Assembly (NCBI GenBank): GCA_965221295.1
Contig: OZ244879.1
Coordinates: forward strand, 2,897,603 to 2,961,602
Source: Dehalococcoidia bacterium
GTDB lineage: Bacteria; Chloroflexota; Dehalococcoidia; Lucifugimonadales; UBA3495
Length of the DNA: 64,000 nucleotides
Direction: 5' to 3'
The notes under the pieces were generated by a model. It searched no databases. It saw nothing but the letters and a program-made list of their open reading frames with translations, and was not told the origin of the DNA. Shown piece after piece: positions 6,327 to 30,339 of the stretch. The translations under genes and the position numbers were made by a program. The stretch's first letter is position 1, and every line of letters starts with the position of its first letter.

Positions 6327-7307
6327 TCATCCGACGAATACCGGTTGGCCAGATGCCATCGATTCGTAGGCGGCGAGAACCAGAGCCAAATCAGCCGCTC
6401 CTTCGGCTCCACTCATGGCTGGCGCCCCCTGTTCCCGGATGCTTCGATGGAATTCCCGAACCATCGGCACGAAGCCGCCCGGATGGTCTGCAACGTCAAT
6501 CAGCGTTTCGGAACCGGCCTCTACGATTTTCAGTTGCGGCTTGCCGGCCTCGAAGTACAGGGTGGCGTCGGCGCCGGACAGCGAAACCCAGGAATGCGGA
6601 GCGATTGGAGCTACGTTCCACGAGTGGGTGATGACGCCGACCACGCCTTCCGCGGTGCGCGTCATCACCACCGCGCCATCCTCGGCCTCCAGGCCTGGTT
6701 GGCCGCGCGGCGTTTCGTGAGCGTAGACGCGATTGGGTCGGCCGCAGAGATGCGACAACACGCTGAACTTGTGAATTCCTCCGTCGATGAGGACGCCGCC
6801 CCCGTTGAATTCGGCCCGGCTGCGCCATCCCTGGGGAAAAAACGGGTACTGCTCATGCAGTTCCATAAGCCTTAACGACCCCAACCGTCCTGCGTCCACC
6901 AACCGTTTGGCCTCCATGACTGCCGGGTGAAAGCGCCAGTTCTCCGCCACCATGAGCGTTACGCCTGCTGAATCGGTTAGCCGGATCATGGTTTCAGCGT
7001 CCGCCAGTTCAGCGGCGATCGGCTTCTCAACCAACGCGTGCTTGCCTTCCCTGGCGGCCAGAGCGACGTGTTCCAGGTGCAAATGGTGGGGAGTGCAAAC
7101 GTAAACCGCGTCCACCCTGGGATCCGCCACCGCCGCGGCGTAATCGCCAAAAGCGTCGATGCCGTTGAACCGGGCGGCGTAATCTCGCGCCTTGCGCAAA
7201 TCGCGGCTGGCGAAGTACAGGCCAATCTCGTCGCTCAGTTCCGAAACGTACCGCGCGAAACGAGCGGAGAAGTCGCCGCAACCCAGAACCAAAAGACCAA
7301 GACTCAC
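6327..7307 (-). CDS. Gfo/Idh/MocA family oxidoreductase
   Basis: LGLLVLGCGDFSARF Rossmann N-terminus and an EKP motif (LVEKPIA). GTG at 7307 has GAGGA upstream. The alternative GTG at 7328 has no RBS. Confidence 0.8.
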   Translation of the reverse strand: MSLGLLVLGCGDFSARFARYVSELSDEIGLYFASRDLRKARDYAARFNGIDAFGDYAAAVADPRVDAVYVCTPHHLHLEHVALAAREGKHALVEKPIAAELADAETMIRLTDSAGVTLMVAENWRFHPAVMEAKRLVDAGRLGSLRLMELHEQYPFFPQGWRSRAEFNGGGVLIDGGIHKFSVLSHLCGRPNRVYAHETPRGQPGLEAEDGAVVMTRTAEGVVGVITHSWNVAPIAPHSWVSLSGADATLYFEAGKPQLKIVEAGSETLIDVADHPGGFVPMVREFHRSIREQGAPAMSGAEGAADLALVLAAYESMASGQPVFVG

Positions 7308-7510
7308 ATTGTCACCATCCTCGAGCACAGCGCCGCCAGCCGCAACCTGGCGCGGCGATTGAACATGAGGTTAACGCAGAAGGCGCGCGGAATCCAGCGT
7401 AAAAGCCCAACGGTTGATTGCCCAGACGTGGGTTCCTATAATCGTCAGCGTAGAATCGACTGCGCAGCCACCCCGGTTCAGGTGGACAACCCAGCGCGAG
7501 GAGGACGGAA

Positions 7511-8302
7511 ATGGCCCGGTTGGACGGAAAAGTGGCTCTGATCACGGGCGCGACGGGCGGCATCGGCCGGGCAGCCGCCCGCGCGTTCGCCGACGAAGGC
7601 GCTCGGCTCACGCTGGTGGACCTCGATGAGAGCGCCTTGCAAGAACTGGTGGAATCCATTGGACCGGATCGGGCCAGTTACGCAGTCGCCGACGTAACCG
7701 ATCCGGTCCAGTCCCAAGCTTATGTCAACGCCGCCGCGGAACGCTGGGGCGGCATCGACGTGTTCCTGGCCAACGCCGGCATCGAGGGGCAGCTTTCGCC
7801 CATCACCGACTATCCCATCGAAGTATTCGACCGGGTGATGGCCGTGAACGTGCGCGGCGTATGGCTCGGCATCAAGTACGTAACGCCGGTGATGCGAGAG
7901 CGTGGCGGGGGCAGCATCGTCATCACGTCGTCTACGGCCGGCATCGGCGCCGGGCCGGATATGTCGGCCTACACCACCAGCAAGCACGCGGTGATTGGGC
8001 TGATGCGGACCGCGGCCATGGAAGGCGCTCCCCTGGGCATCCGTGTCAACACCGTGAATCCGGCCCCGATCGAAACCCGCATGATGCGATCCATCGAAGA
8101 GCAGCGCGTGGCTGCCCTGGACGACGCCACCGTCACCGTGGATCAAACGAAACGGGCGACGGCGGCGCGCATTCCGCTGCAACGGTACGGAAACCCCGAA
8201 GAAGTGGCCCAGATGATGCTGTTCTTGGCCAGCGACGACAGCAGCTTCTGCACCGGTGGCGTCTACATGGTGGACGGGGGCCGGTCGGCGGGAAACCGTT
8301 AG
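7511..8302 (+). CDS. SDR family oxidoreductase
   Basis: GKVALITGATGGIGRAAA, NAG, YTTSK (YxxxK). RBS GAGGAGGA. Confidence 0.85.
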   Translation: MARLDGKVALITGATGGIGRAAARAFADEGARLTLVDLDESALQELVESIGPDRASYAVADVTDPVQSQAYVNAAAERWGGIDVFLANAGIEGQLSPITDYPIEVFDRVMAVNVRGVWLGIKYVTPVMRERGGGSIVITSSTAGIGAGPDMSAYTTSKHAVIGLMRTAAMEGAPLGIRVNTVNPAPIETRMMRSIEEQRVAALDDATVTVDQTKRATAARIPLQRYGNPEEVAQMMLFLASDDSSFCTGGVYMVDGGRSAGNR

Positions 8303-8309
8303 CAGACGC

Positions 8310-9545
8310 TCAGCAGCAACCCGCCAGACCTGGCGTCTTTGAAATGCCGCGGTCCCGCACCAAAAGGGTGGCGGCGGCCGCAACCACCGATAGCCCCAGC
8401 AGCAGGATGAAGGCGGGGTTATAGCTGCCCCACAGGTCAAAAGCCAGGGCGCCGACCAGGGCTCCCAGCCCTCCGCTGATCTGGTGAACCGCCGAAATGG
8501 CGCCGCTGATCCTCCCTAAACGAGTCTGGCCGAACAGGTTGCCGGAGAACATTACCGTCAAGGGCGCCGTCATCAGGAAGGTGAATCCGTAGAGCAGGGC
8601 GAATGCCATCACCGACGCTTTGGCCTGTGACAGCAAGATCAGCCCGAAGATGCCGATGCGCATGACGAAACACAGCAGCGTCGGCCGGCCCGGCCCCTTG
8701 AGGTCGGCCAAATACCCAGAGACCAGCACCCCCAGCAGGCCCATCAATCCCATGAAGGCCAGCAGGTTGCCCGCCACCACCGTTTGAATTCCAGTGTCCA
8801 GAGCGAAAGCCACCACGTGCGTCGCCACCAGAAAATCCTGGAAACCGCAAATGGCATAGATCCCCACCAGCAACCAAAGCTGGCCGGAATGCAACAGAGG
8901 AGACTCACGGGAAGTTTCCAGGGGCGCATCCGGCGCCTGAGCCGGCGGCGCTTCGTCCCATGCGGCTGGCGGCGCCGGGCGCGACCTGACCGCCAACAGC
9001 GCCGCCGGCGCCAGGATCGCCAGGTTGGCCAGGCCCAGACCCGCGAAAGACCACCGCCAGTTGTACCTAACCAACGATTGGGCCAATACGCCAACGATGG
9101 CCAACTGACCGATGGCGTTGCCCGATACGGCCACGCTGTTGGCCAGACCTCGCCGATCGGGAAACCACCGCACGATCATCACGCTCACGACCGGGTTGGA
9201 CATTCCCGCGTTGCCCAGGGCGAAAATCAGCCCGTACACCGTGAATAACTGCCAGGGCGCGGACACCACGCTCATCAGACCCAGGCCCAGCGCGACCAGA
9301 ACCGCGCCCGCGCCCATGATCCAGCGAAGTTCGTAGCGGTCCGCAAGCCGTCCAACCAACGGCATGGCCAGAGCCGACACCAACATGTAGGCGGTGATGC
9401 CCAGCGAGAGAACTGACCTGCTCCACTCAAGGTCATCGGCCATGGGCTTGAGCATCAGCCCCAGGGCGGATCTCGAGCCGCCGTTGAAGAAGAGAACCAG
9501 GAATCCCGTCGCCAGGATGATCCAGCGGTAGTCAGCGCCTCGCAT
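8310..9545 (-). CDS. MFS transporter
   Basis: 411 aa with about 12 hydrophobic helices. The GRLADRY loop motif lies between TM2 and TM3. Confidence 0.8.
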   Translation of the reverse strand: MRGADYRWIILATGFLVLFFNGGSRSALGLMLKPMADDLEWSRSVLSLGITAYMLVSALAMPLVGRLADRYELRWIMGAGAVLVALGLGLMSVVSAPWQLFTVYGLIFALGNAGMSNPVVSVMIVRWFPDRRGLANSVAVSGNAIGQLAIVGVLAQSLVRYNWRWSFAGLGLANLAILAPAALLAVRSRPAPPAAWDEAPPAQAPDAPLETSRESPLLHSGQLWLLVGIYAICGFQDFLVATHVVAFALDTGIQTVVAGNLLAFMGLMGLLGVLVSGYLADLKGPGRPTLLCFVMRIGIFGLILLSQAKASVMAFALLYGFTFLMTAPLTVMFSGNLFGQTRLGRISGAISAVHQISGGLGALVGALAFDLWGSYNPAFILLLGLSVVAAAATLLVRDRGISKTPGLAGCC

Positions 9546-9836
9546 CGAACCGACGCTCCGTCAGGCTGCCACACCCTAGCGCACTGGTAGTGGCGAGTCA
9601 ATGCATCCGGATCCTTCACGCCACCCGGTTTCTGCGACCGCTACTGAAACCAGGCATTTTATTCGTCAGCCTGAAGCGATGGACCCAATATTGGGAGCGC
9701 AGCGCGGCAAACTCGTTGCCCGCCAATAACCACGGTTCGCCCTGTCTAGGGGCCGTAGCGACATCACCACGGGAGGGTCAATGTGCGAACGCTCGACCGG
9801 CGCCGCTCGAGCGCCTTCCCGCTCAAGGTGTCTCTG

Positions 9837-11036
9837 TCATATCTCGAGGGGCGTCACGCATCGGGCCGGGTCGCATTCTTGCATCACGGTTGGTCGATAG
9901 CCGGCGTGTATGAAGTCAGCCAGCAACTTCCCGGCCATGGGGCCGCGACCGAACCCGGACGATGCCAGGCCGGTGGCGATGTAAAGGTTCTCCATGCCAG
10001 GCGCTGCCCCAATGATGGGTTTGCCATCAAGGGAAAAGGGCATCAAACCCGACCAAGAGCGGTTGATACCGACCTCATGCAAGAAGGGGAGCGCCTCGGC
10101 CGTGTGGGCGAAATTCGCTTCCACGCCGCTCATATCCAAAGACCGGTCGTAACCGACCAGTTGGCGATCCCCTCCAAAGATGATTTCACCCTCCCGTGTT
10201 TGTCTCCCATAAAGGTGCCTGGTGACTCGTTGGCTGCCCAGGTGGGTCAGTTCGGGTGGGGTGTCCGGGCCGGCGCCGGGGCTGCCATTCCAATGGGCGT
10301 ACGACTCCGCGCCGGAAATTCCATGGAAGACACGCGGCGGCAGCGGTTCCGTGGCCCACATCTGGCCGCGCACCGGAACCACCGGGACGCTCAACCCCAG
10401 CATCTTGCCCAACGGCGCGCTCCACGCCCCAGCGGCCAGCACGAGTTTGCCAGCGCTGAATTCCTCGTCGTGACACGCCACTCGGTAGGTATCATCGCCG
10501 GCGCGGGTGATCCCGGTAACCTCCCGACCCAACAGTATCTCGGCTCCGAGGCCGCGGGCCGCCTCGGCGAAGGCGCGGGTGGCCTTTACCGGGTCAGCCT
10601 GACCTCGCAGCGGGAAGCGCATGGCCCCCTTCAGCTGGGGATTCAAGCCCGGTTCGATGCCTCGGGCCTCGTCAATGGTGAGCAAATCCAGGGTGTAGCC
10701 CAGAGATTGCAACCGCAGCGTCCGGTCCCTCGCGTAGTCATACTGTTCGTCCGTCTGTATGACCTGCAGGCCACCGGAAGCCCGGAATTCGATGTCATAA
10801 CCAAGTTCCAGCTGCATCCGCTTGAAGATCTGGAGGCTGCCCATGGTCAGGTGGGATTCCAAGTCGGGAACGTTGCCCCAACCCAGGGCGCCGATGCCTC
10901 CCGCGTTCACCCCGGAGGCTTCGGAGGCGATTTCTCCGCGCTCGAGCAGGATCACCCGGCGTCCATATTCAGCCAGATGAAAGGCAACCGAGGCGCCGGC
11001 GATGCCGCCACCTATGATGACGTCGGCAGCGTCCAT
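9837..11036 (-). CDS. FAD-dependent oxidoreductase (DAO / sarcosine-oxidase beta-like)
   Basis: DVIIGGGIAGASVAFHLAEYGRRVILLERGE dinucleotide-binding motif. RBS AGGAGAG. Confidence 0.85.
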   Translation of the reverse strand: MDAADVIIGGGIAGASVAFHLAEYGRRVILLERGEIASEASGVNAGGIGALGWGNVPDLESHLTMGSLQIFKRMQLELGYDIEFRASGGLQVIQTDEQYDYARDRTLRLQSLGYTLDLLTIDEARGIEPGLNPQLKGAMRFPLRGQADPVKATRAFAEAARGLGAEILLGREVTGITRAGDDTYRVACHDEEFSAGKLVLAAGAWSAPLGKMLGLSVPVVPVRGQMWATEPLPPRVFHGISGAESYAHWNGSPGAGPDTPPELTHLGSQRVTRHLYGRQTREGEIIFGGDRQLVGYDRSLDMSGVEANFAHTAEALPFLHEVGINRSWSGLMPFSLDGKPIIGAAPGMENLYIATGLASSGFGRGPMAGKLLADFIHAGYRPTVMQECDPARCVTPLEI

Positions 11037-11162
11037 GGCGATCTCTCCTATGGGTTGGGCTCAGGAAAGCATTAACGGCGGCGGCGGTCCGATGGGCGCA
11101 GGGGTTCCGGGCAATCTCGCCAGTCGGAACGGCGACGCCCGAACGTCGATTCTGGAAGCGGA

Positions 11163-11253
11163 TGGCGGAGAGAGCGGGATTCGAACCCGCGATATCCCAG
11201 AGGGATATACCGGTTTTCGAGACCGGCGCCTTCAACCACTCGGCCACCTCTCC
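11163..11253 (-). tRNA. tRNA-Ser (anticodon CGA), 91 nt with long variable arm, encoded CCA
   Basis: The reverse complement folds as a cloverleaf. Acceptor is GGAGAGG/TCTCTCC, anticodon arm CCGGT-CTCGAAA-ACCGG, variable arm ATATCCC-TCT-GGGATAT, and T arm GCGGG-TTCGAAT-CCCGC. Confidence 0.9.
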
Positions 11254-24303: not shown

Positions 24304-24948
24304 TTACTGCACCGGATTCACCCTGAACTTGTTGTAAGACTCCAAGGTTTCCAGCCGGGACAGGAAAAGGGCCTTCATGGCCTCGTTCAAGAACGGATTG
24401 GACTTGGGTTTCACGATTTCCTTGGTACCCTGATGGCTCACCGTCACCAGGCCGATGGGGGTGTACAAGTCCAGTAGGTCGGCCAGTTCCTCGACATTTG
24501 AACCCTCCGGGTGAACGACATACACGTGGTCGAAGATGCTGCCGGCGAAGGTCCTAGATACCGGTGAACTCACTGGGTTTTTGAGCATGGCCAACGCTTG
24601 GTCAATCCCTGCGTACCCCGCTGGAGCCTTCATATCGCTGCCAGACTTTAGGTATCCTTTCAGCTCGTAGCCTACCACTTTCCCGCTGGCGCGCGCCTCC
24701 AACAGATCAATGTCTGGCGAAAAGCTGAAGTACCGATAACCGCCCGTATCCTTGCTGACTCGCACCTTCTGAAAAATCTCGCTCTGGTTGTTTCTGCGCA
24801 GGATTTGATACATGGCAAGGAATACGGCATCCTCCGTAATGGGGAGCCGTTTGCTCATGATCCGGTTGAGCACCTCGGATGCGTGTTGGTCGAACGGCGC
24901 CGGACGCCCAAACGCTCCGCGACCGATGGTGGTTCTGCGTCTTCGCAT
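24304..24948 (-). CDS. Hypothetical protein with PD-(D/E)xK nuclease-like core
   Basis: FSFSPD79IDLLEA-x9-VVGYE95LK97 matches a PD...ExK core preceded by a helical, wHTH-like N-terminal region. GGAG lies 5 nt upstream of the ATG at 24948. G+C is locally lower. Confidence 0.5.
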   Translation of the reverse strand: MRRRRTTIGRGAFGRPAPFDQHASEVLNRIMSKRLPITEDAVFLAMYQILRRNNQSEIFQKVRVSKDTGGYRYFSFSPDIDLLEARASGKVVGYELKGYLKSGSDMKAPAGYAGIDQALAMLKNPVSSPVSRTFAGSIFDHVYVVHPEGSNVEELADLLDLYTPIGLVTVSHQGTKEIVKPKSNPFLNEAMKALFLSRLETLESYNKFRVNPVQ

Positions 24949-25071: not shown

Positions 25072-26397
25072 CTAGCCGCCCCCGCTCACCATCGGCGTCG
25101 CCGCTCGCAGCGATGGGTGTTGGGGCGGCCTGGCCAGCAGCAGGGCCGCCGCGGTGATGGCCGCCAACCCCGCGTAGATGATGAAAGCTAGGCCGTAGCC
25201 GTGGGCCAGGTGGAATACCAACCCCGACGCCACCGCGCCAATGGCTTGCCCCAGCGAGGTGAACGGCTCCGTCACGCCTCGGATCGTGCCAAGAGACTGG
25301 CGTCCGAAGAAATTGGCGTACGCCACTGGCGGCACCACCAGTATGCCGGCCACCGACACGCCAAACAGGCCGGCGGCGACGTAGGCCAGCCACACCGTGT
25401 CAGCGACGATGAACAGGATGCACGCCACCATCATCACCAGGGCTACAATGGCGTAAGTGTACGAAACCCGCATATTCTCCAGCGCCTTTCCCCACAGCAG
25501 GCTGCCGACGCCGGTGCCGGCCGCATTCACTACGATACTCAGTTGCGACAACGCCAGATCTATGCCCCGGGAACGCAGTAGGTCTGCCTGGTACACGTTG
25601 GTGCCAGACTGTAGCAGAAACAGGAAACCGGTGCCGATGGCCAGCGCCCACAACGCCGGCGTCCGTATGGCCTCTCGAGCGGTCCATTCCTGGCCCTCCT
25701 CAGATGGCGTCGGCTCGGCCGCGGGAGCGTCTTCTTCCCCTCCGCTGTCGTTGGGCTCAGGCAAATCGCCGTCCGGGAATAGACCAACGTCCTCGGGCCG
25801 CTGCGCCACCAGCAGCGCGGCTGGAGCCAGGGCGATGGCGTAAACCATCAACCCCAATACGATCCACGCGGTCTCCCAGCCGTATGCCACGCTGATCCAG
25901 GTGGCCACCAATGGGAACGCGACCATGCCCCCGGAGTGGGCCAGGAACAACAGTCCGGTGGCCCGGCCACGCTGCCTGACGAACCACCGACCGACCAACG
26001 TGGCCGATCCGACGTTGAGCGGACTGCTGAACATGATCCGGCCAACCGCCAGCGCCGCGTAGAAGACGGCAATGTGAACCGAAAGCCAGGCCATGGCGAT
26101 CGTGCTCAACCCCAGGATGATCAACGACACCACCAGAACCACCCGGGACCCATAGCGATCAACCGCCCAGCCGACCGGTGGCGAGGCTCCCGTGGCCAAC
26201 AGACCGCCCAGAGCGGCCGCTCCGCCAATCAAGGCGCGACTCCAGCCCGTTTCTTCTGCGATCAACGGCACGAACACCGCGAAGGTGAGACTGCCCGCGG
26301 CGTTGCGCACGAACATGCTGCTGCCGGCGGTTCCCAGCACAACCCAACCGTAAAAGAAGGGGAGCCGGCCAGACAGATATGTTATGAGAATTTGCAT
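25072..26397 (-). CDS. MFS transporter
   Basis: 441 aa with about 12 helices and a central acidic loop. The ATG at 26397 directly abuts the TGA of the upstream gene (TGAATG). Confidence 0.8.
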   Translation of the reverse strand: MQILITYLSGRLPFFYGWVVLGTAGSSMFVRNAAGSLTFAVFVPLIAEETGWSRALIGGAAALGGLLATGASPPVGWAVDRYGSRVVLVVSLIILGLSTIAMAWLSVHIAVFYAALAVGRIMFSSPLNVGSATLVGRWFVRQRGRATGLLFLAHSGGMVAFPLVATWISVAYGWETAWIVLGLMVYAIALAPAALLVAQRPEDVGLFPDGDLPEPNDSGGEEDAPAAEPTPSEEGQEWTAREAIRTPALWALAIGTGFLFLLQSGTNVYQADLLRSRGIDLALSQLSIVVNAAGTGVGSLLWGKALENMRVSYTYAIVALVMMVACILFIVADTVWLAYVAAGLFGVSVAGILVVPPVAYANFFGRQSLGTIRGVTEPFTSLGQAIGAVASGLVFHLAHGYGLAFIIYAGLAAITAAALLLARPPQHPSLRAATPMVSGGG

Positions 26398-27039
26398 TCA
26401 GCGATTATCCCGCAACATTTGCAGGGCTGCAAACGTATCGTCTCGAAACCTGAGCCATGAGGGCAGTTGCTCCAACAGGCCGCCGACGGGCAGGTTCTCC
26501 AACAATTGACGACGGTGGCGGTTAAACCGGCTCACGAAATCCTTTCTGCGCCGGGTTCCCCTGGGCGACGCCGCCTTCAACAAAGCGTCTTGCAACGCGG
26601 CTTTGGGATCAGCCACACCCTCCAATTGGCGCACCTGGGGCAATTCCAGCGGGTTCGCCCCGGAAGGGTTTCCAGCCACTCGTCGGATTTCTGATTCATT
26701 GGTTAGGAGCCAAGTCTCGGTCGTTTGCACCGGAACAATGGGCACGGAGACCCCAGCGTATTCGGCAGCGACGATGCCTTGGTTGATTTCTTCGTAACGG
26801 GATCGCGAGCCAGCAGCCGCGGTCTGCAGGGTACTATCTGCGTCGCGATGGACGAATAGCAGATCCACCGGCCCAGACATGGCGCATCCCCGTAGTACTT
26901 TATCCGCCACCCTCCTTCCCGTGTGTGATGCAGCGCCCTCCGCTTCCTGAACGCCGAAATAAATTAGCAAGGAGGCGATGTGCGGGATCATTGCCGCGTC
27001 CGACGAACCTTCGCATACAAGGAAAAACCGCAATATCAT
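26398..27039 (-). CDS. DUF4276-like protein (TOPRIM-like predicted nuclease partner of the ATPase)
   Basis: Trimmed to the ATG at 27039, which gives an ATGA overlap with the ATPase stop. Motifs are FFLVCE10GSSD, FVHRD66AD68 (E...DxD as in TOPRIM) and a later TTETWLL. Confidence 0.6.
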   Translation of the reverse strand: MILRFFLVCEGSSDAAMIPHIASLLIYFGVQEAEGAASHTGRRVADKVLRGCAMSGPVDLLFVHRDADSTLQTAAAGSRSRYEEINQGIVAAEYAGVSVPIVPVQTTETWLLTNESEIRRVAGNPSGANPLELPQVRQLEGVADPKAALQDALLKAASPRGTRRRKDFVSRFNRHRRQLLENLPVGGLLEQLPSWLRFRDDTFAALQMLRDNR

Positions 27040-28511
27040 CCGGCCATCCAAAATTCGGGCGGAAAAAACGAAGGCTGCGTTCCTTCCGGCAAGGAAACGT
27101 AAGCGGACAATTCCAAATTGCCTACACTGCGAATTTGGCGCGCCGCTTCGGTGACATCCGGTCGCTGAAACGCGCGCGATCGCCAGGTATCGTGCAATGG
27201 ATAGCATCTCAAGGGCAAAACCTTTGCCCCGGACTGCGAACGCACGGCCGGGTTTTTGGCAAGGACCAGATCTTCGGCGGATTGGATCTGAACGAAAAAC
27301 GGTGAATGGGTCGAGACTACGACTTGCCTCAGAGGGTTGTCGTCTGCCACCGCTTCAATTGGGTCCACCGCGACGTCATGCAACAGACGGTTCATGTCCG
27401 CCAGTTTTTCCGGGTGGATCCCGTTTTCCGGTTCCTCAATGCAGTAAACCCCGGTTAGCTCAGAGGACTCAGCGATGGCGACCAACGCCAAAAAGCGCAG
27501 CGTTCCATCCGAAACGGAATTGGCTCGCAGACGCACGCCAGAGGGTTCTTCCAATTCCAGAGAGTAAAGCTGGCGGACCTCATCTTGGACTACTCGCAAC
27601 GACTTTACCGGTATCAGGTCGGCCAGCCGGGACGCCACTCGGCCCAGAATGTCATCTGGCGCCGCTCCGGGTTCAAGTTGCTGATGCCGCAGACTGGACA
27701 AATGCTGCAGCGTCGCCGGGATGTGGGCGCCGTCGGCGCCGATGCCGGGCGGTTGCGTGTACCGATCCGGACGGCGCATGGCGGCCGGGGCCAGGGCTAG
27801 AATCCGCCAGCTCTGCATCTCTCTCTTGGCCGCCAGGATGGTTGGCGTGGCAGAGGTGTTCTCAGTCCCGATAATGGTTCGCGTCGCCCCTTCCGCCGGA
27901 GACGGCCGGCCGCGCCCGTGGGAGCCCCCGTCTTGGTGAACCACGATGGCTGCCTGTTCGGTGTCCGGGTCGGTTTCGGTCGATATGAACCCGCTGCGGG
28001 CGTGGCGTTTGTTGTACACCACGCTGTCCCGGAACCTCTGCTTGCTGTGGGGAAACCTCAGATGCTGCGCCGCGTTCCCCGTGGTGATGGGCCGCAGTTC
28101 TTCTTTTTCCAGCGACAACCCTCCCAATGGACCGCTGGTCGGCGACGGCGGTTCGTACCGGAACGCAACCTCATAACGCAGGAAGGAGGAAGAGGCCTGG
28201 GTTTCACGGCCGAAGTCGTCGCGCACGTGGCTGTCCACGATCATCTCAACAGCGAACCGCATCCGGTTGGCGCGTTGGCCATTCCCGGAAAACAGCAGGT
28301 CGGCGATCTCCGCCGTATCCTCGCCGGCGTTGCGCAGTCGCAGCGCCGCTTCGTTGATGGTGGAGTCGGTCAGCAGCGAAAGGAACCGTATGGCGTCAAA
28401 GATGTTGGACTTGCCCACGCCATTGGGCCCGGCGATGCAGGTGTAGGGCCCGAAATCCAGCGCGAAGTCCTGCAGATTCTTGAAACCATTGACTTCCAGT
28501 CGCGTCAGCAT
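27036..28511 (-). CDS. ABC/SMC-like AAA ATPase (AAA_15/21/23-type, OLD/AriA/RecF-like head)
   Basis: LEVNGFKNL...IAGPNGVGKSN (Walker A, G28-S35), signature SVSDGTLRFLAL, Walker B/D-loop VYCIEEPENGIHP, H-loop VVVSTHSP. GGAGG lies 5 nt upstream of the ATG. Confidence 0.8.
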   Translation of the reverse strand: MLTRLEVNGFKNLQDFALDFGPYTCIAGPNGVGKSNIFDAIRFLSLLTDSTINEAALRLRNAGEDTAEIADLLFSGNGQRANRMRFAVEMIVDSHVRDDFGRETQASSSFLRYEVAFRYEPPSPTSGPLGGLSLEKEELRPITTGNAAQHLRFPHSKQRFRDSVVYNKRHARSGFISTETDPDTEQAAIVVHQDGGSHGRGRPSPAEGATRTIIGTENTSATPTILAAKREMQSWRILALAPAAMRRPDRYTQPPGIGADGAHIPATLQHLSSLRHQQLEPGAAPDDILGRVASRLADLIPVKSLRVVQDEVRQLYSLELEEPSGVRLRANSVSDGTLRFLALVAIAESSELTGVYCIEEPENGIHPEKLADMNRLLHDVAVDPIEAVADDNPLRQVVVSTHSPFFVQIQSAEDLVLAKNPAVRSQSGAKVLPLRCYPLHDTWRSRAFQRPDVTEAARQIRSVGNLELSAYVSLPEGTQPSFFPPEFWMAG

Positions 28512-28536
28512 GATCGCCTCCAGGAAACGGCGGGCG

Positions 28537-30339
28537 TCAGGTTTCAGCCGATTCTAGCATGGCCAAATGCCACCTCAATCGCTCCATTTCGCAGGCGAAC
28601 CACAGGGCCATGCTTCCCGTCCGGTCGTCGTGGCCAGACAGCGCCGCGCGGTCCAGGTATGCCCTCAGGTCCGGCATCACCCCTGTACTGATACAGCCGT
28701 CCACCACACCGCCATCGTCATCGACCCGTTCGGACACCGCCCGCCAGCAAGACTCCACGCCGGCCCGGTATCCATCAGCCTCGCCATCGGGCAGCCAACC
28801 CTCGCGGATCCCTCTCGCCAGCGCGTAGCCCACCATGCAGGTGGACGTGAGTTCTCCCCAGGCGCCCGGCACGTCCACCAACTCGCCAAAGGTTCCCCAG
28901 GGTTGTTGGCGGCGCAACAACGCGTCCAAATGCTGGCGGTGCCTGGCCAACAACTCTGGCCGCGCCGGATGCTCAGCAGGCAGGTAAGTCAACGCTTCAG
29001 CGTATCCCAGCGCCGCGAAACCGTTGCCACGGCTCCAGAAGTGAGGAGCCGACCGCGCGTGTTTGAACAACCCGCTGCCGTCCTGCACGTCGCCACCGTC
29101 GATTAGAAACCGCGCCAATAGATCCGCGTATTTTGCGTCGCCGGATATGCGGTGCGCCCGGCCCAGCATCGCTCCGGCCATGAACATGTCCTCCACGCGA
29201 AAATCGGGGTCGCACGGCGCCGGGGCGGCGCCCGGGCCGCGACTGGCGAACCGGTCGGCCGCATAGAAGAACAACTTGCGGTAGGTTTCGTCGCCGGTGT
29301 AATCGGCCAGTCGAGCCGCCCACACTACGCCGGCCAGCGCCGCGCCGCCGGCGTTCGCCAGATACGCCGCTGGATCCGCTGCGATGGGAGCGACGAAGGC
29401 CGCGATTTCCCCGGTGGGGTTTTCGCCAGTGGGATTCTCGCCGCCATCGTCCAGCGCCGCCAGCCGCAGCCGCCCGCTGATGCCGACTCCCTGCGTGTAG
29501 TTCACCGGGTCCAGCGCGTGACCGTACCGACGCGCCAGGATCCGCGCCGTCTCAACTGGAGTTCGCGCCCGTCGGCCTTCCAGCGCCAACCGGCCGGCCG
29601 ATACCGGAACATCAGCGTCCTTTTTCGTGGCGGCCCACAGTGGCGCCAAAGCGTCGGTCAACCCAGTCCAATGGGTGGTCAATCTCAACGCGGGCAACGT
29701 CCCTGGGGCATCGTTTGACGCTCGCCCCAACGCCGACGCCAGGGAGTCGTCGCTGGCCATGGGAAGGGCCCCCAGCGCCCTGGCTACCGCGCCGCCGGCC
29801 GCGGCCTCGTTGGCTTCCCAACGTATCGGATGCTCAGCGCTATCATGCAGCGCCACCTCCACCACCAAATCCGGAGCCTGGTAGGTGATCCACCGCCACA
29901 GATAGCGCCGCTCTGGAGCAGTTTGGTCGAAGTAGTAACCGCCCTCTGGCGGATACCCGGCGGTGAGATCAACCCGGTTGGCAACGGCCTCTTCCCAATC
30001 TCCGCCGGCGAGGGCGTCAGGGTTGGCGGCGACTATCACGGACAGGGCCACTCCCGACTCCTGGGCGGCCGCCGTTCCGCAGAACCGTTCCAGCGCGGTG
30101 AGGATGCGTGGCGTATCGGCGGCGTTGCCGCGCAGCCCCGCCACCAGCAGCGCCGATGGTTGGCGTGGGACATCCGAGAACGGCAACGTCCGAGTGTCCT
30201 GCAACGCCATAATGGGACGCAGTGATGGCGTCAACCCAATTGTGGTGGACTGCCAGTACGCTGGCGAGCGTTTGCGCAACAAGTTGATCAGGGCGGCGTT
30301 GATGTCGGTGGGGTGCATGGTGGACATTGAGCATCTCAC
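28537..30339 (-). CDS. Glycoside hydrolase family 88/105-like (YteR/unsaturated glucuronyl hydrolase-like) protein with an extra N-terminal domain
   Basis: The C-terminal ~330 aa resemble the (alpha/alpha)6 GH88/105 fold (VEDMFMAG..L, FWSRGNGFAALG, TSTCMVGYALARG). The N-terminal ~200 aa look like a degenerate M14/AstE-type domain. The start is uncertain (GTG 30339, ATG 30327 or 30318). Confidence 0.6.
   Translation of the reverse strand: MRCSMSTMHPTDINAALINLLRKRSPAYWQSTTIGLTPSLRPIMALQDTRTLPFSDVPRQPSALLVAGLRGNAADTPRILTALERFCGTAAAQESGVALSVIVAANPDALAGGDWEEAVANRVDLTAGYPPEGGYYFDQTAPERRYLWRWITYQAPDLVVEVALHDSAEHPIRWEANEAAAGGAVARALGALPMASDDSLASALGRASNDAPGTLPALRLTTHWTGLTDALAPLWAATKKDADVPVSAGRLALEGRRARTPVETARILARRYGHALDPVNYTQGVGISGRLRLAALDDGGENPTGENPTGEIAAFVAPIAADPAAYLANAGGAALAGVVWAARLADYTGDETYRKLFFYAADRFASRGPGAAPAPCDPDFRVEDMFMAGAMLGRAHRISGDAKYADLLARFLIDGGDVQDGSGLFKHARSAPHFWSRGNGFAALGYAEALTYLPAEHPARPELLARHRQHLDALLRRQQPWGTFGELVDVPGAWGELTSTCMVGYALARGIREGWLPDGEADGYRAGVESCWRAVSERVDDDGGVVDGCISTGVMPDLRAYLDRAALSGHDDRTGSMALWFACEMERLRWHLAMLESAET

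Follow-up and report, generated by a model that had tools for sequence, protein, structure and literature searches.

A HEC-01-type ATPase and TOPRIM-like gene pair as an old, turning-over cassette at one operonic site in Dehalococcoidia

The stretch of DNA analysed here, referred to below as the window, comprises 64,000 nucleotides (nt) of the genome of a Dehalococcoidia bacterium (contig OZ244879.1, positions 2,897,603 to 2,961,602), and our subject is a two-gene cassette that lies between a hydrolase-like gene and a transporter gene. All features described at this locus are encoded on the reverse strand (-), and coordinates are those of the window. The first gene of the pair (27036..28511), called from its open reading frame (ORF), Pfam and PADLOC, encodes a 491-amino-acid (aa) ABC-type ATPase of the HEC-01A type. 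The second (26398..27039), called from its ORF, PADLOC and homologues, encodes a 213-aa TOPRIM-like protein of a divergent DUF4276, or HEC-01B, type. When checked on the sequence, the stop of the ATPase gene and the start of the DUF4276 gene share an ATGA overlap (27036..27039), which is consistent with translational coupling within the pair, and the stop of the DUF4276 gene directly abuts the start codon of the next gene, a transporter of the MFS type, in a TGAATG junction (26395..26400). A Shine-Dalgarno-like GGAGG motif (28517..28521) stands 5 nt upstream of the ATPase ATG, inside the 25-nt gap that separates the ATPase gene from the GH88-like gene before it. An earlier sequence-only reading of this DNA had described both ORFs, the overlap, the junction and the GGAGG motif, and each of them lies where that reading had placed it.

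On the upstream side, the flanking gene (28537..30339) encodes 600 aa with a GH88-like domain at the C-terminus (Pfam Glyco_hydro_88, 2.4e-27), and the downstream flank is a 441-aa MFS_1 transporter (25072..26397; Pfam MFS_1, 4.2e-38). The GH88-like, ATPase, DUF4276 and MFS genes all run on one strand, the GH88-like gene adjoins the cassette in relatives too, and the further neighbours of the pair in the window are CoA-transferases, short-chain dehydrogenases (SDRs) and luciferase-like oxidoreductases. We infer in part, from the 25-nt gap, the ATGA overlap and the TGAATG junction, that the pair would be expressed together with the GH88-like/MFS operon. Alternatively, rather than depending on read-through from the GH88-like gene, the cassette may have a promoter of its own: a weak promoter-like site, identified by consensus match only (TTGAGG, a 16-nt spacer and TG-n-TAGAAT; 28551..28578), lies a short way upstream of the ATPase gene, within the GH88-like gene at its 3' end. 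Promoter-like sites number 5 in 6.8 kb, compared with 1.5 expected from shuffled sequence.

Judged by its motifs, the 491-aa protein is an ABC/SMC-head ATPase with a complete catalytic set. The Walker A motif (GPNGVGKS, 28407-28430), the signature (SDGTLRFL, 27489-27512), the Walker B motif with D-loop (VYCIEEPENGIHP, 27411-27449) and the H-loop (STHSP, 27300-27314) all translate as they had been quoted in support of a complete ABC head. The Pfam scan proposed as a check on that claim returned significant matches to AAA_21 (3.8e-25) and AAA_15 (7.7e-21), along with SMC_N (2.4e-10). The best PADLOC match is the HEC-01A model PDLC04184 (4.7e-96, 320.6 bits), which aligns residues 1-408 with profile positions 1-392 of 464; weaker PADLOC matches are to AriA (7.2e-27), mad3 (2.9e-20) and, at about 1e-13, AbiLi, Old and GajA. 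The N-terminus also matches the OLD structure 6p74 (2.2e-9), and the N-terminal head has weak sequence similarity to RecF and SMC. The NCBIfam MAD3 model aligns with the ATPase from end to end (5.7e-39), but membership in that family was rejected because the 134.5 bits obtained fall short of the 420-bit cut-off. An AlphaFold model of the ATPase, built with 42 close homologues, was too poor to use (predicted local distance difference test score, pLDDT, 50.3; predicted template modelling score, pTM, 0.34).

The acidic residues E10 (27010-27012) and D66-A-D68 (26836-26844), which the sequence-only reading had ascribed to a TOPRIM fold in the 213-aa protein, likewise translate as claimed, and so does the TTETWLL motif that it had associated with DUF4276 (26704-26724), a motif that includes E108. 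Across 42 homologues, H64, R65, D66, E108, W110 and L111 are invariant, E10 is nearly so (at least 90% conserved), and position 68 is mostly D. The PADLOC HEC-01B model PDLC04210 matches the protein at 3.8e-21 (residues 46-210 on positions 59-213 of 217), so that PADLOC, another of the proposed checks, assigns both proteins to HEC-01. The DUF4276 label needs more care. A Pfam scan of the protein that included PF14103 (DUF4276) gave no match even at E<=10, and membership can therefore be argued only through homologues. Of these, 169 were found in the databases, some of them annotated with PF14103 or called 'DUF4276 family protein' by NCBI, and 26 of the 42 aligned homologues match PF14103 when scanned singly (best 1.4e-7). 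The label thus fails as a direct match and holds by kinship, and on this sequence evidence we regard the protein as a divergent branch of DUF4276. A profile of the homologues, searched against 1.84 billion cluster representatives, recovered 1,698 clusters at E<=1e-10, and the branch is therefore widespread.

Structural prediction is compatible with the same assignment. The AlphaFold (AF2) model of the 213-aa protein (pLDDT 94.4, pTM 0.89) has a beta-alpha core, in which E10 follows strand 1 (residues 2-8) and D66 and D68 follow strand 3 (residues 60-64), and a helical C-terminal half. The model thus has a four-stranded alpha/beta core with a Glu following strand 1 and a DxD following strand 3, as is expected of a TOPRIM domain. 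In the PDB its best fold match is to OLD of Burkholderia pseudomallei, in the C-terminal TOPRIM region (6nk8_A, probability 0.99). In other words, the structure comparison that the sequence-only reading had suggested does point to an OLD TOPRIM region, but weakly: the match has an E-value of 1e-2 and TM scores of 0.42/0.44, and nothing in the PDB matches at E<=1e-3. A profile of the DUF4276-branch alignment gave only noise against PDB sequences (E about 0.9). The predicted TOPRIM assignment is well supported when it rests on the motifs and the literature, and only weakly so by the fold search alone.

In the public annotation this protein (P0001, 197 aa) begins only at Met17, which leaves out the first 16 codons (26992-27039, -), Glu10 among them. 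We take the 213-aa start to be the real one, because homologues conserve RFLLVCEGSSD from residue 4 and because the start within the ATGA overlap is conserved elsewhere.

These matches place the pair among systems that have already been named. HEC-01 consists of an ABC ATPase together with a TOPRIM protein that shares the OLD metal site (Payne et al., bioRxiv 10.1101/2024.01.29.577857), and the window pair resembles it in that both proteins match its models best, the ATPase comes first of two genes, and for the second protein a TOPRIM fold is predicted, with a metal site like that of OLD. The copies from which HEC-01 was defined lay within Hma (helicase-methylase-ATPase) systems (bioRxiv 10.1101/2024.01.29.577857), whereas the window pair has no Hma or other defence gene near it and lies within a metabolic operon. 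However, embedding in Hma is the context of discovery and no requirement of the PADLOC HEC-01 model. In MADS, the methylation-associated defence system, the Mad3-Mad4 pair likewise combines an AAA_15/21 ABC ATPase with a DUF4276 TOPRIM protein; according to the Menshen study, DUF4276 belongs to the Toprim superfamily and Mad4 is a DUF4276 homologue (PMC12065111). Unlike MADS, the window has no methyltransferase or other MADS genes in the flanks of the pair, and its 213-aa protein has no PADLOC mad4 match. Burman et al. count 'MADS3-4' and AbiL among the ABC ATPase plus TOPRIM systems, next to PARIS, OLD and Gabija, with DUF4276 as one of the annotating domains (PMC11464382). The sequence-only reading had known of no named ATPase-DUF4276 system, which is out of date, as HEC-01 and MADS Mad3-Mad4 are both named and HEC-01 has been tested against phage twice. 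Its broader proposal of a two-gene ABC ATPase and TOPRIM-like module of the OLD/PARIS/AbiL class is supported by the HEC-01 matches in PADLOC.

Two other systems offer looser parallels. OLD and the GajA protein of Gabija share the ABC ATPase head and the TOPRIM E...DxD pattern with the pair, and 6nk8 is its best structural match, but there both parts are fused in one polypeptide; the window pair consists of separate overlapping genes and lacks a GajB-like helicase. PARIS (AriA with the DUF4435 protein AriB) is a two-gene ABC ATPase and TOPRIM system, and it is AriA whose models match the window ATPase at 7.2e-27. However, the window nuclease belongs to the DUF4276 lineage, with no AriB or DUF4435 match in PADLOC or Pfam, and we found no phage- or satellite-borne copies of the pair. 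In PARIS an ATPase scaffold senses the trigger and releases a TOPRIM tRNA nuclease (PMC11464382), and by this analogy we would take PARIS as the best mechanistic template for the window pair.

We propose that the pair is probably an immune module of the HEC-01 type, with its defence role argued from these relatives. In this scheme the ATPase would be co-translated in fixed stoichiometry with a small, metal-dependent nuclease of TOPRIM fold, whose active site would be formed by E10, D66xD68 and E108. If PARIS, OLD and Gabija are taken as models, the ATPase would act as sensor and regulator and would hold or license the nuclease until a phage cue arrives, upon which the nuclease would cut nucleic acid and infection would be stopped. 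The defence function, the trigger, the split into sensor and effector, the substrate and the quaternary arrangement are all features that we infer from this analogy. What can be observed directly is how the cassette is paired, conserved and inherited.

Searching with the GH88-like protein against species-representative genomes gave 80 loci, all from metagenome-assembled genomes of Dehalococcoidia/Chloroflexota; 48 of these form the syntenic set, in which a single contig carries both the GH88-like and the MFS orthologue, arranged as in the window (loci are labelled L001, L014 and so on). The conserved order is CoA-transferase, GH88-like, cassette, MFS, SDR, and in 45 of the 48 syntenic species-level relatives an ATPase gene lies between GH88-like and MFS. 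The site holds ATPase and DUF4276 genes in 27 of the relatives, an ATPase gene only in 18, and is empty in 3. When a tree is built from the flank genes, no major branch lacks the pair, and the ATPase-only, degraded and empty states are scattered among pair-bearing relatives. One of the 'empty' sites (L030) retains a 26-codon relic of the DUF4276 C-terminus (E 0.002), and the gap at one ATPase-only site (L018) a 31-codon relic of the same end (E 2e-4); these are therefore secondary deletions. The GH88-like orthologues of the clade have diverged to 68-83% identity. The cassette predates the radiation of this Dehalococcoidia clade and is an old resident of its site. In one further genome (L053), the GH88-like orthologue (8001-9761, 72% identity) stands without CoA-transferase, cassette, MFS or SDR neighbours, and so at least one relative departs from the conserved arrangement.

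The sequence-only reading had taken the pair for an insertion between hydrolase and transporter; read as a recent arrival, this is contradicted by occupancy of the exact site in 45 of 48 relatives, 27 of them with DUF4276. If a foreign cassette had entered the GH-MFS string recently by horizontal transfer, a G+C (guanine plus cytosine) content below that of the flanks would agree with this. So would the identity of the window DUF4276 protein to its homologues, which is 46-53% to all syntenic copies as opposed to 56-57% to copies in a gene context of cyanobacterial type. Yet the site is occupied throughout the clade, relics persist at one empty and one ATPase-only site, no direct or inverted repeats above chance flank the window pair, and no integrase or transposase gene lies in its neighbourhood. 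Recent insertion was rejected on the occupancy and the relics, and we consider it very improbable, although allele replacement, as opposed to insertion, may have taken place at the window site.

Base composition has to be read in the same light. The G+C content is 58.1% in the DUF4276 gene and 60.8% in the ATPase gene, compared with 64.9% in the MFS gene and 66.3% in the GH88-like gene, and the pair falls within the lowest 1.1% of equal-length windows. The earlier estimate of about 55-60% for the pair against about 67% for the MFS gene was roughly right in finding the pair lower but overstated the gap. The same dip is seen in every relative (54-63% in the cassette, 62-72% in the flanks) and is therefore no mark of recency; neither the dip nor a gene order that looks wedged in is by itself a sign of recent acquisition. 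The sequence-only reading had also named a conserved position with host-like composition as evidence against its own proposal. Only half of that combination was found, as the position is conserved and the composition is not host-like, and also because the cassette shows presence-absence variation and allelic turnover. Within the window, the dip is limited to the DUF4276 gene and the C-terminal half of the ATPase gene: G+C at third codon positions (GC3) steps from a host-like 0.79 in the N-terminal half of the ATPase gene to a DUF4276-like 0.64 in its C-terminal half. Conservation among relatives is lowest at ATPase residues 267-294 and 414-464, which together with the GC3 step is compatible with a recombination breakpoint inside the ATPase gene; from the step, such a breakpoint would be predicted near codon 250-270.

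For 20 loci with an intact pair, the median of the pairwise identities is 0.88, 0.82 and 0.74 for three flank genes, 0.77 for the ATPase and only 0.56 for DUF4276. Pairwise identities correlate strongly among the flank genes (Spearman 0.69-0.93) and between ATPase and DUF4276 (0.65), whereas those of ATPase and DUF4276 correlate with the flanks at only 0.30 and 0.29. Individual comparisons show the same thing. Two loci with flanks 97% identical (L036 and L051) have ATPases only 55% identical, and two with flanks at 95-96% (L020 and L028) have ATPases at 59%; DUF4276 could not be compared in either case because L036 and L020 have none. Conversely, L006 and L028 have flanks at 73-89%, ATPases at 85% and DUF4276 proteins at 82%. 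The history of the cassette is decoupled from that of its flanks.

Decay occurs as well. An insertion sequence (IS) with a DDE_Tnp_1_4 transposase (1.6e-60) splits one ATPase gene after about codon 36 (L014:9969-11363), an insertion with a 258-aa ORF that has no Pfam match splits one DUF4276 gene (L026:11501-12277), one ATPase gene is frameshifted (L033), two are truncated (L016, L027), and one DUF4276 gene carries a stop codon (L035). Intact copies are nonetheless constrained: the ratio of nonsynonymous to synonymous substitution rates (dN/dS) among orthologues is 0.04-0.13 for the ATPase, 0.10-0.31 for DUF4276 and 0.03-0.15 for the flanks, and both intact cassette genes are under purifying selection. 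In other words, the cassette behaves like accessory immunity, with allele exchange, decay and loss at a fixed site.

Selection and occupancy could also be explained if the pair served a lineage-specific housekeeping function needed by the clade, either in DNA maintenance (RecF/SbcC/OLD-like repair) or in the GH88-MFS operon. The presence of an ATPase at the site in 45 of 48 syntenic relatives, purifying selection on it as strong as on the flanks, and the weak similarity of its N-terminal head to RecF and SMC would all fit. We regard this as quite improbable, since a needed function is hard to reconcile with 3 empty sites, 18 loci without the nuclease, and genes disrupted by an IS, a frameshift and a stop codon. 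The persistently atypical G+C content and the decoupled history of the cassette speak against it as well, as do paralogous GH88 loci without the cassette and the occurrence of the pair in unrelated operons of other phyla.

Those other occurrences are consistent in their arrangement. In 8 of 8 other, unrelated contexts the ATPase gene comes first and is followed by DUF4276 with an identical 4-bp overlap, which makes the pairing of the nuclease with its ATPase obligate in these contexts. At four loci (L002, at about 6560-8640, L083, L084 and L086), on several divergent contigs, the pair keeps a fixed place: it immediately follows a pterin-4a-like gene where an NDH (Proton_antipo_M)/ChpXY cluster ends, next to carboxysome shell genes, and its start overlaps the upstream gene. 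This gene content suggests a cyanobacterium, and the nesting of the L002 ATPase inside the Dehalococcoidia pair-type clade suggests transfer between phyla. In another context the pair follows a GHL10 gene among BNR_2 genes, and in Nocardia and Streptosporangium chromosomes it lies among metabolic genes. Only one context (L091:300-16600) is defence-island-like, contrary to that of the window, with the pair among HepT-like, Peptidase_M78 with DUF4411, DUF433/DUF5615, Type ISP restriction-modification, ParE and Uma2 genes. Viral searches gave no match in PHROGs or by tblastn against a phage collection, and the TOPRIM model matched nothing at E<=1e-3 among viral structures (BFVD). A plasmid search returned two distant megaplasmid matches only, and there is thus no evidence of a phage- or plasmid-borne branch.

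The recurrence of the pair in housekeeping operons bears on a further possibility, that it is a selfish, addiction-type (toxin-antitoxin-like) cassette in which loss of the ATPase unleashes the nuclease and from which the host draws no benefit against phage. In favour of this, the pair sits, translationally coupled, in housekeeping operons of three unrelated lineages (GH88/MFS, NDH/ChpXY/carboxysome and after GHL10). Loss is also asymmetric: 18 loci have an ATPase without DUF4276 and none is cleanly DUF4276-only. One representative of HEC-01 tested in E. coli MG1655 against a subset of BASEL phages gave no protection (bioRxiv 10.1101/2024.01.29.577857). However, the loci with an IS-split and a frameshifted ATPase gene (L014 and L033) keep an intact-looking DUF4276 frame, so that lethality of the nuclease in the absence of its partner is not obvious. 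A cold-seep survey reports that another HEC-01 representative did protect E. coli B from one or more of T4, T5 and T7. We think a purely selfish cassette unlikely; addiction and abortive-infection defence can, moreover, coexist in one system.

The ATPase-only loci raise a different question. In the ATPase tree, twelve of the partner-less ATPases group into a single deep clade, although their hosts are interspersed with pair-bearing hosts. All twelve match HEC-01A (7.9e-73 to 4.9e-85) and keep Walker A, but in 10 of the 12 the catalytic Glu after Walker B is replaced (CIEEPE becomes CIELPE, CIESPE, CIEYPE, CIENPE, CIDAPE or CIEQPE; L020, L024, L025, L031, L036, L040, L041, L052, L013 and L010, with the ATPase at about 9800-11250 in each), and in nine of those ten, all except L010, the H-loop His is changed as well (THSP to SQSP). 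Both residues are kept in the remaining two (L003 and L011). Most of the partner-less genes have an intact ORF of 472-496 aa, the ORF ends in L052 are uncertain, and dN/dS across six partner-less pairs is 0.13-0.23. A second group (L012, L048, L018 and L029) has pair-type ATPases with intact catalytic residues and has lost DUF4276 more recently.

It is conceivable, though we give it little credence, that the locus is a long-lived, recombining dimorphism between the complete pair and a partner-less ATPase in a new role. Such a role may be that of an ATP-binding sensor or decoy, of a regulator of a nuclease in trans, or of a function tied to the GH88/MFS operon. If true, this would provide a natural example of the repurposing of an immune ATPase.

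Several of these observations weigh against a HEC-01-type immune module at the window site, and they lower our confidence in it without displacing it. The partner-less ATPases are constrained, and an ATPase can therefore be kept without the nuclease. The window locus lies outside any defence island and has neither an integrase nor flanking repeats, and a defence gene would not usually occupy one operonic site stably in about 45 species, a pattern that would fit a non-immune role too. To these must be added the failure of the 213-aa protein to match Pfam directly, the weakness of its best fold match, the unusable model of the ATPase and the negative phage test of one HEC-01 representative. We nevertheless favour the immune module, for which the family assignment of both proteins, the conservation of catalytic residues, the obligate pairing, the purifying selection and the pattern of exchange and decay are all directly observed.

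As a type the system offers little that is new, having been catalogued as HEC-01 and MADS3-4, with a mechanism that is still unsolved. What it offers is comparison: a single site can be followed through about 50 species-level genomes, in which the cassette is variously intact, decayed, deleted or partner-less. They provide a natural series from which to learn which residues and which partner are needed and whether the ATPase can work without the nuclease. The series also offers insight into the exchange of immune cassettes in uncultured Chloroflexota where no mobile-element machinery is involved.

One neighbour of the cassette does have a narrow distribution. Between the MFS and SDR genes lies a 214-aa ORF (24304-24948, -) whose G+C content of 55.5% is the lowest in the area and within the lowest 0.5% of equal-length windows. 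It had no match in Pfam, PADLOC or PHROG, and its NCBIfam match to the 'sce7726 family' is weak (1.3e-4, below the cut-off). The ORF is missing in 48 of 48 syntenic relatives and present only in an identical metagenome contig (L001), and it looks like a genuinely strain-specific insertion in this neighbourhood.

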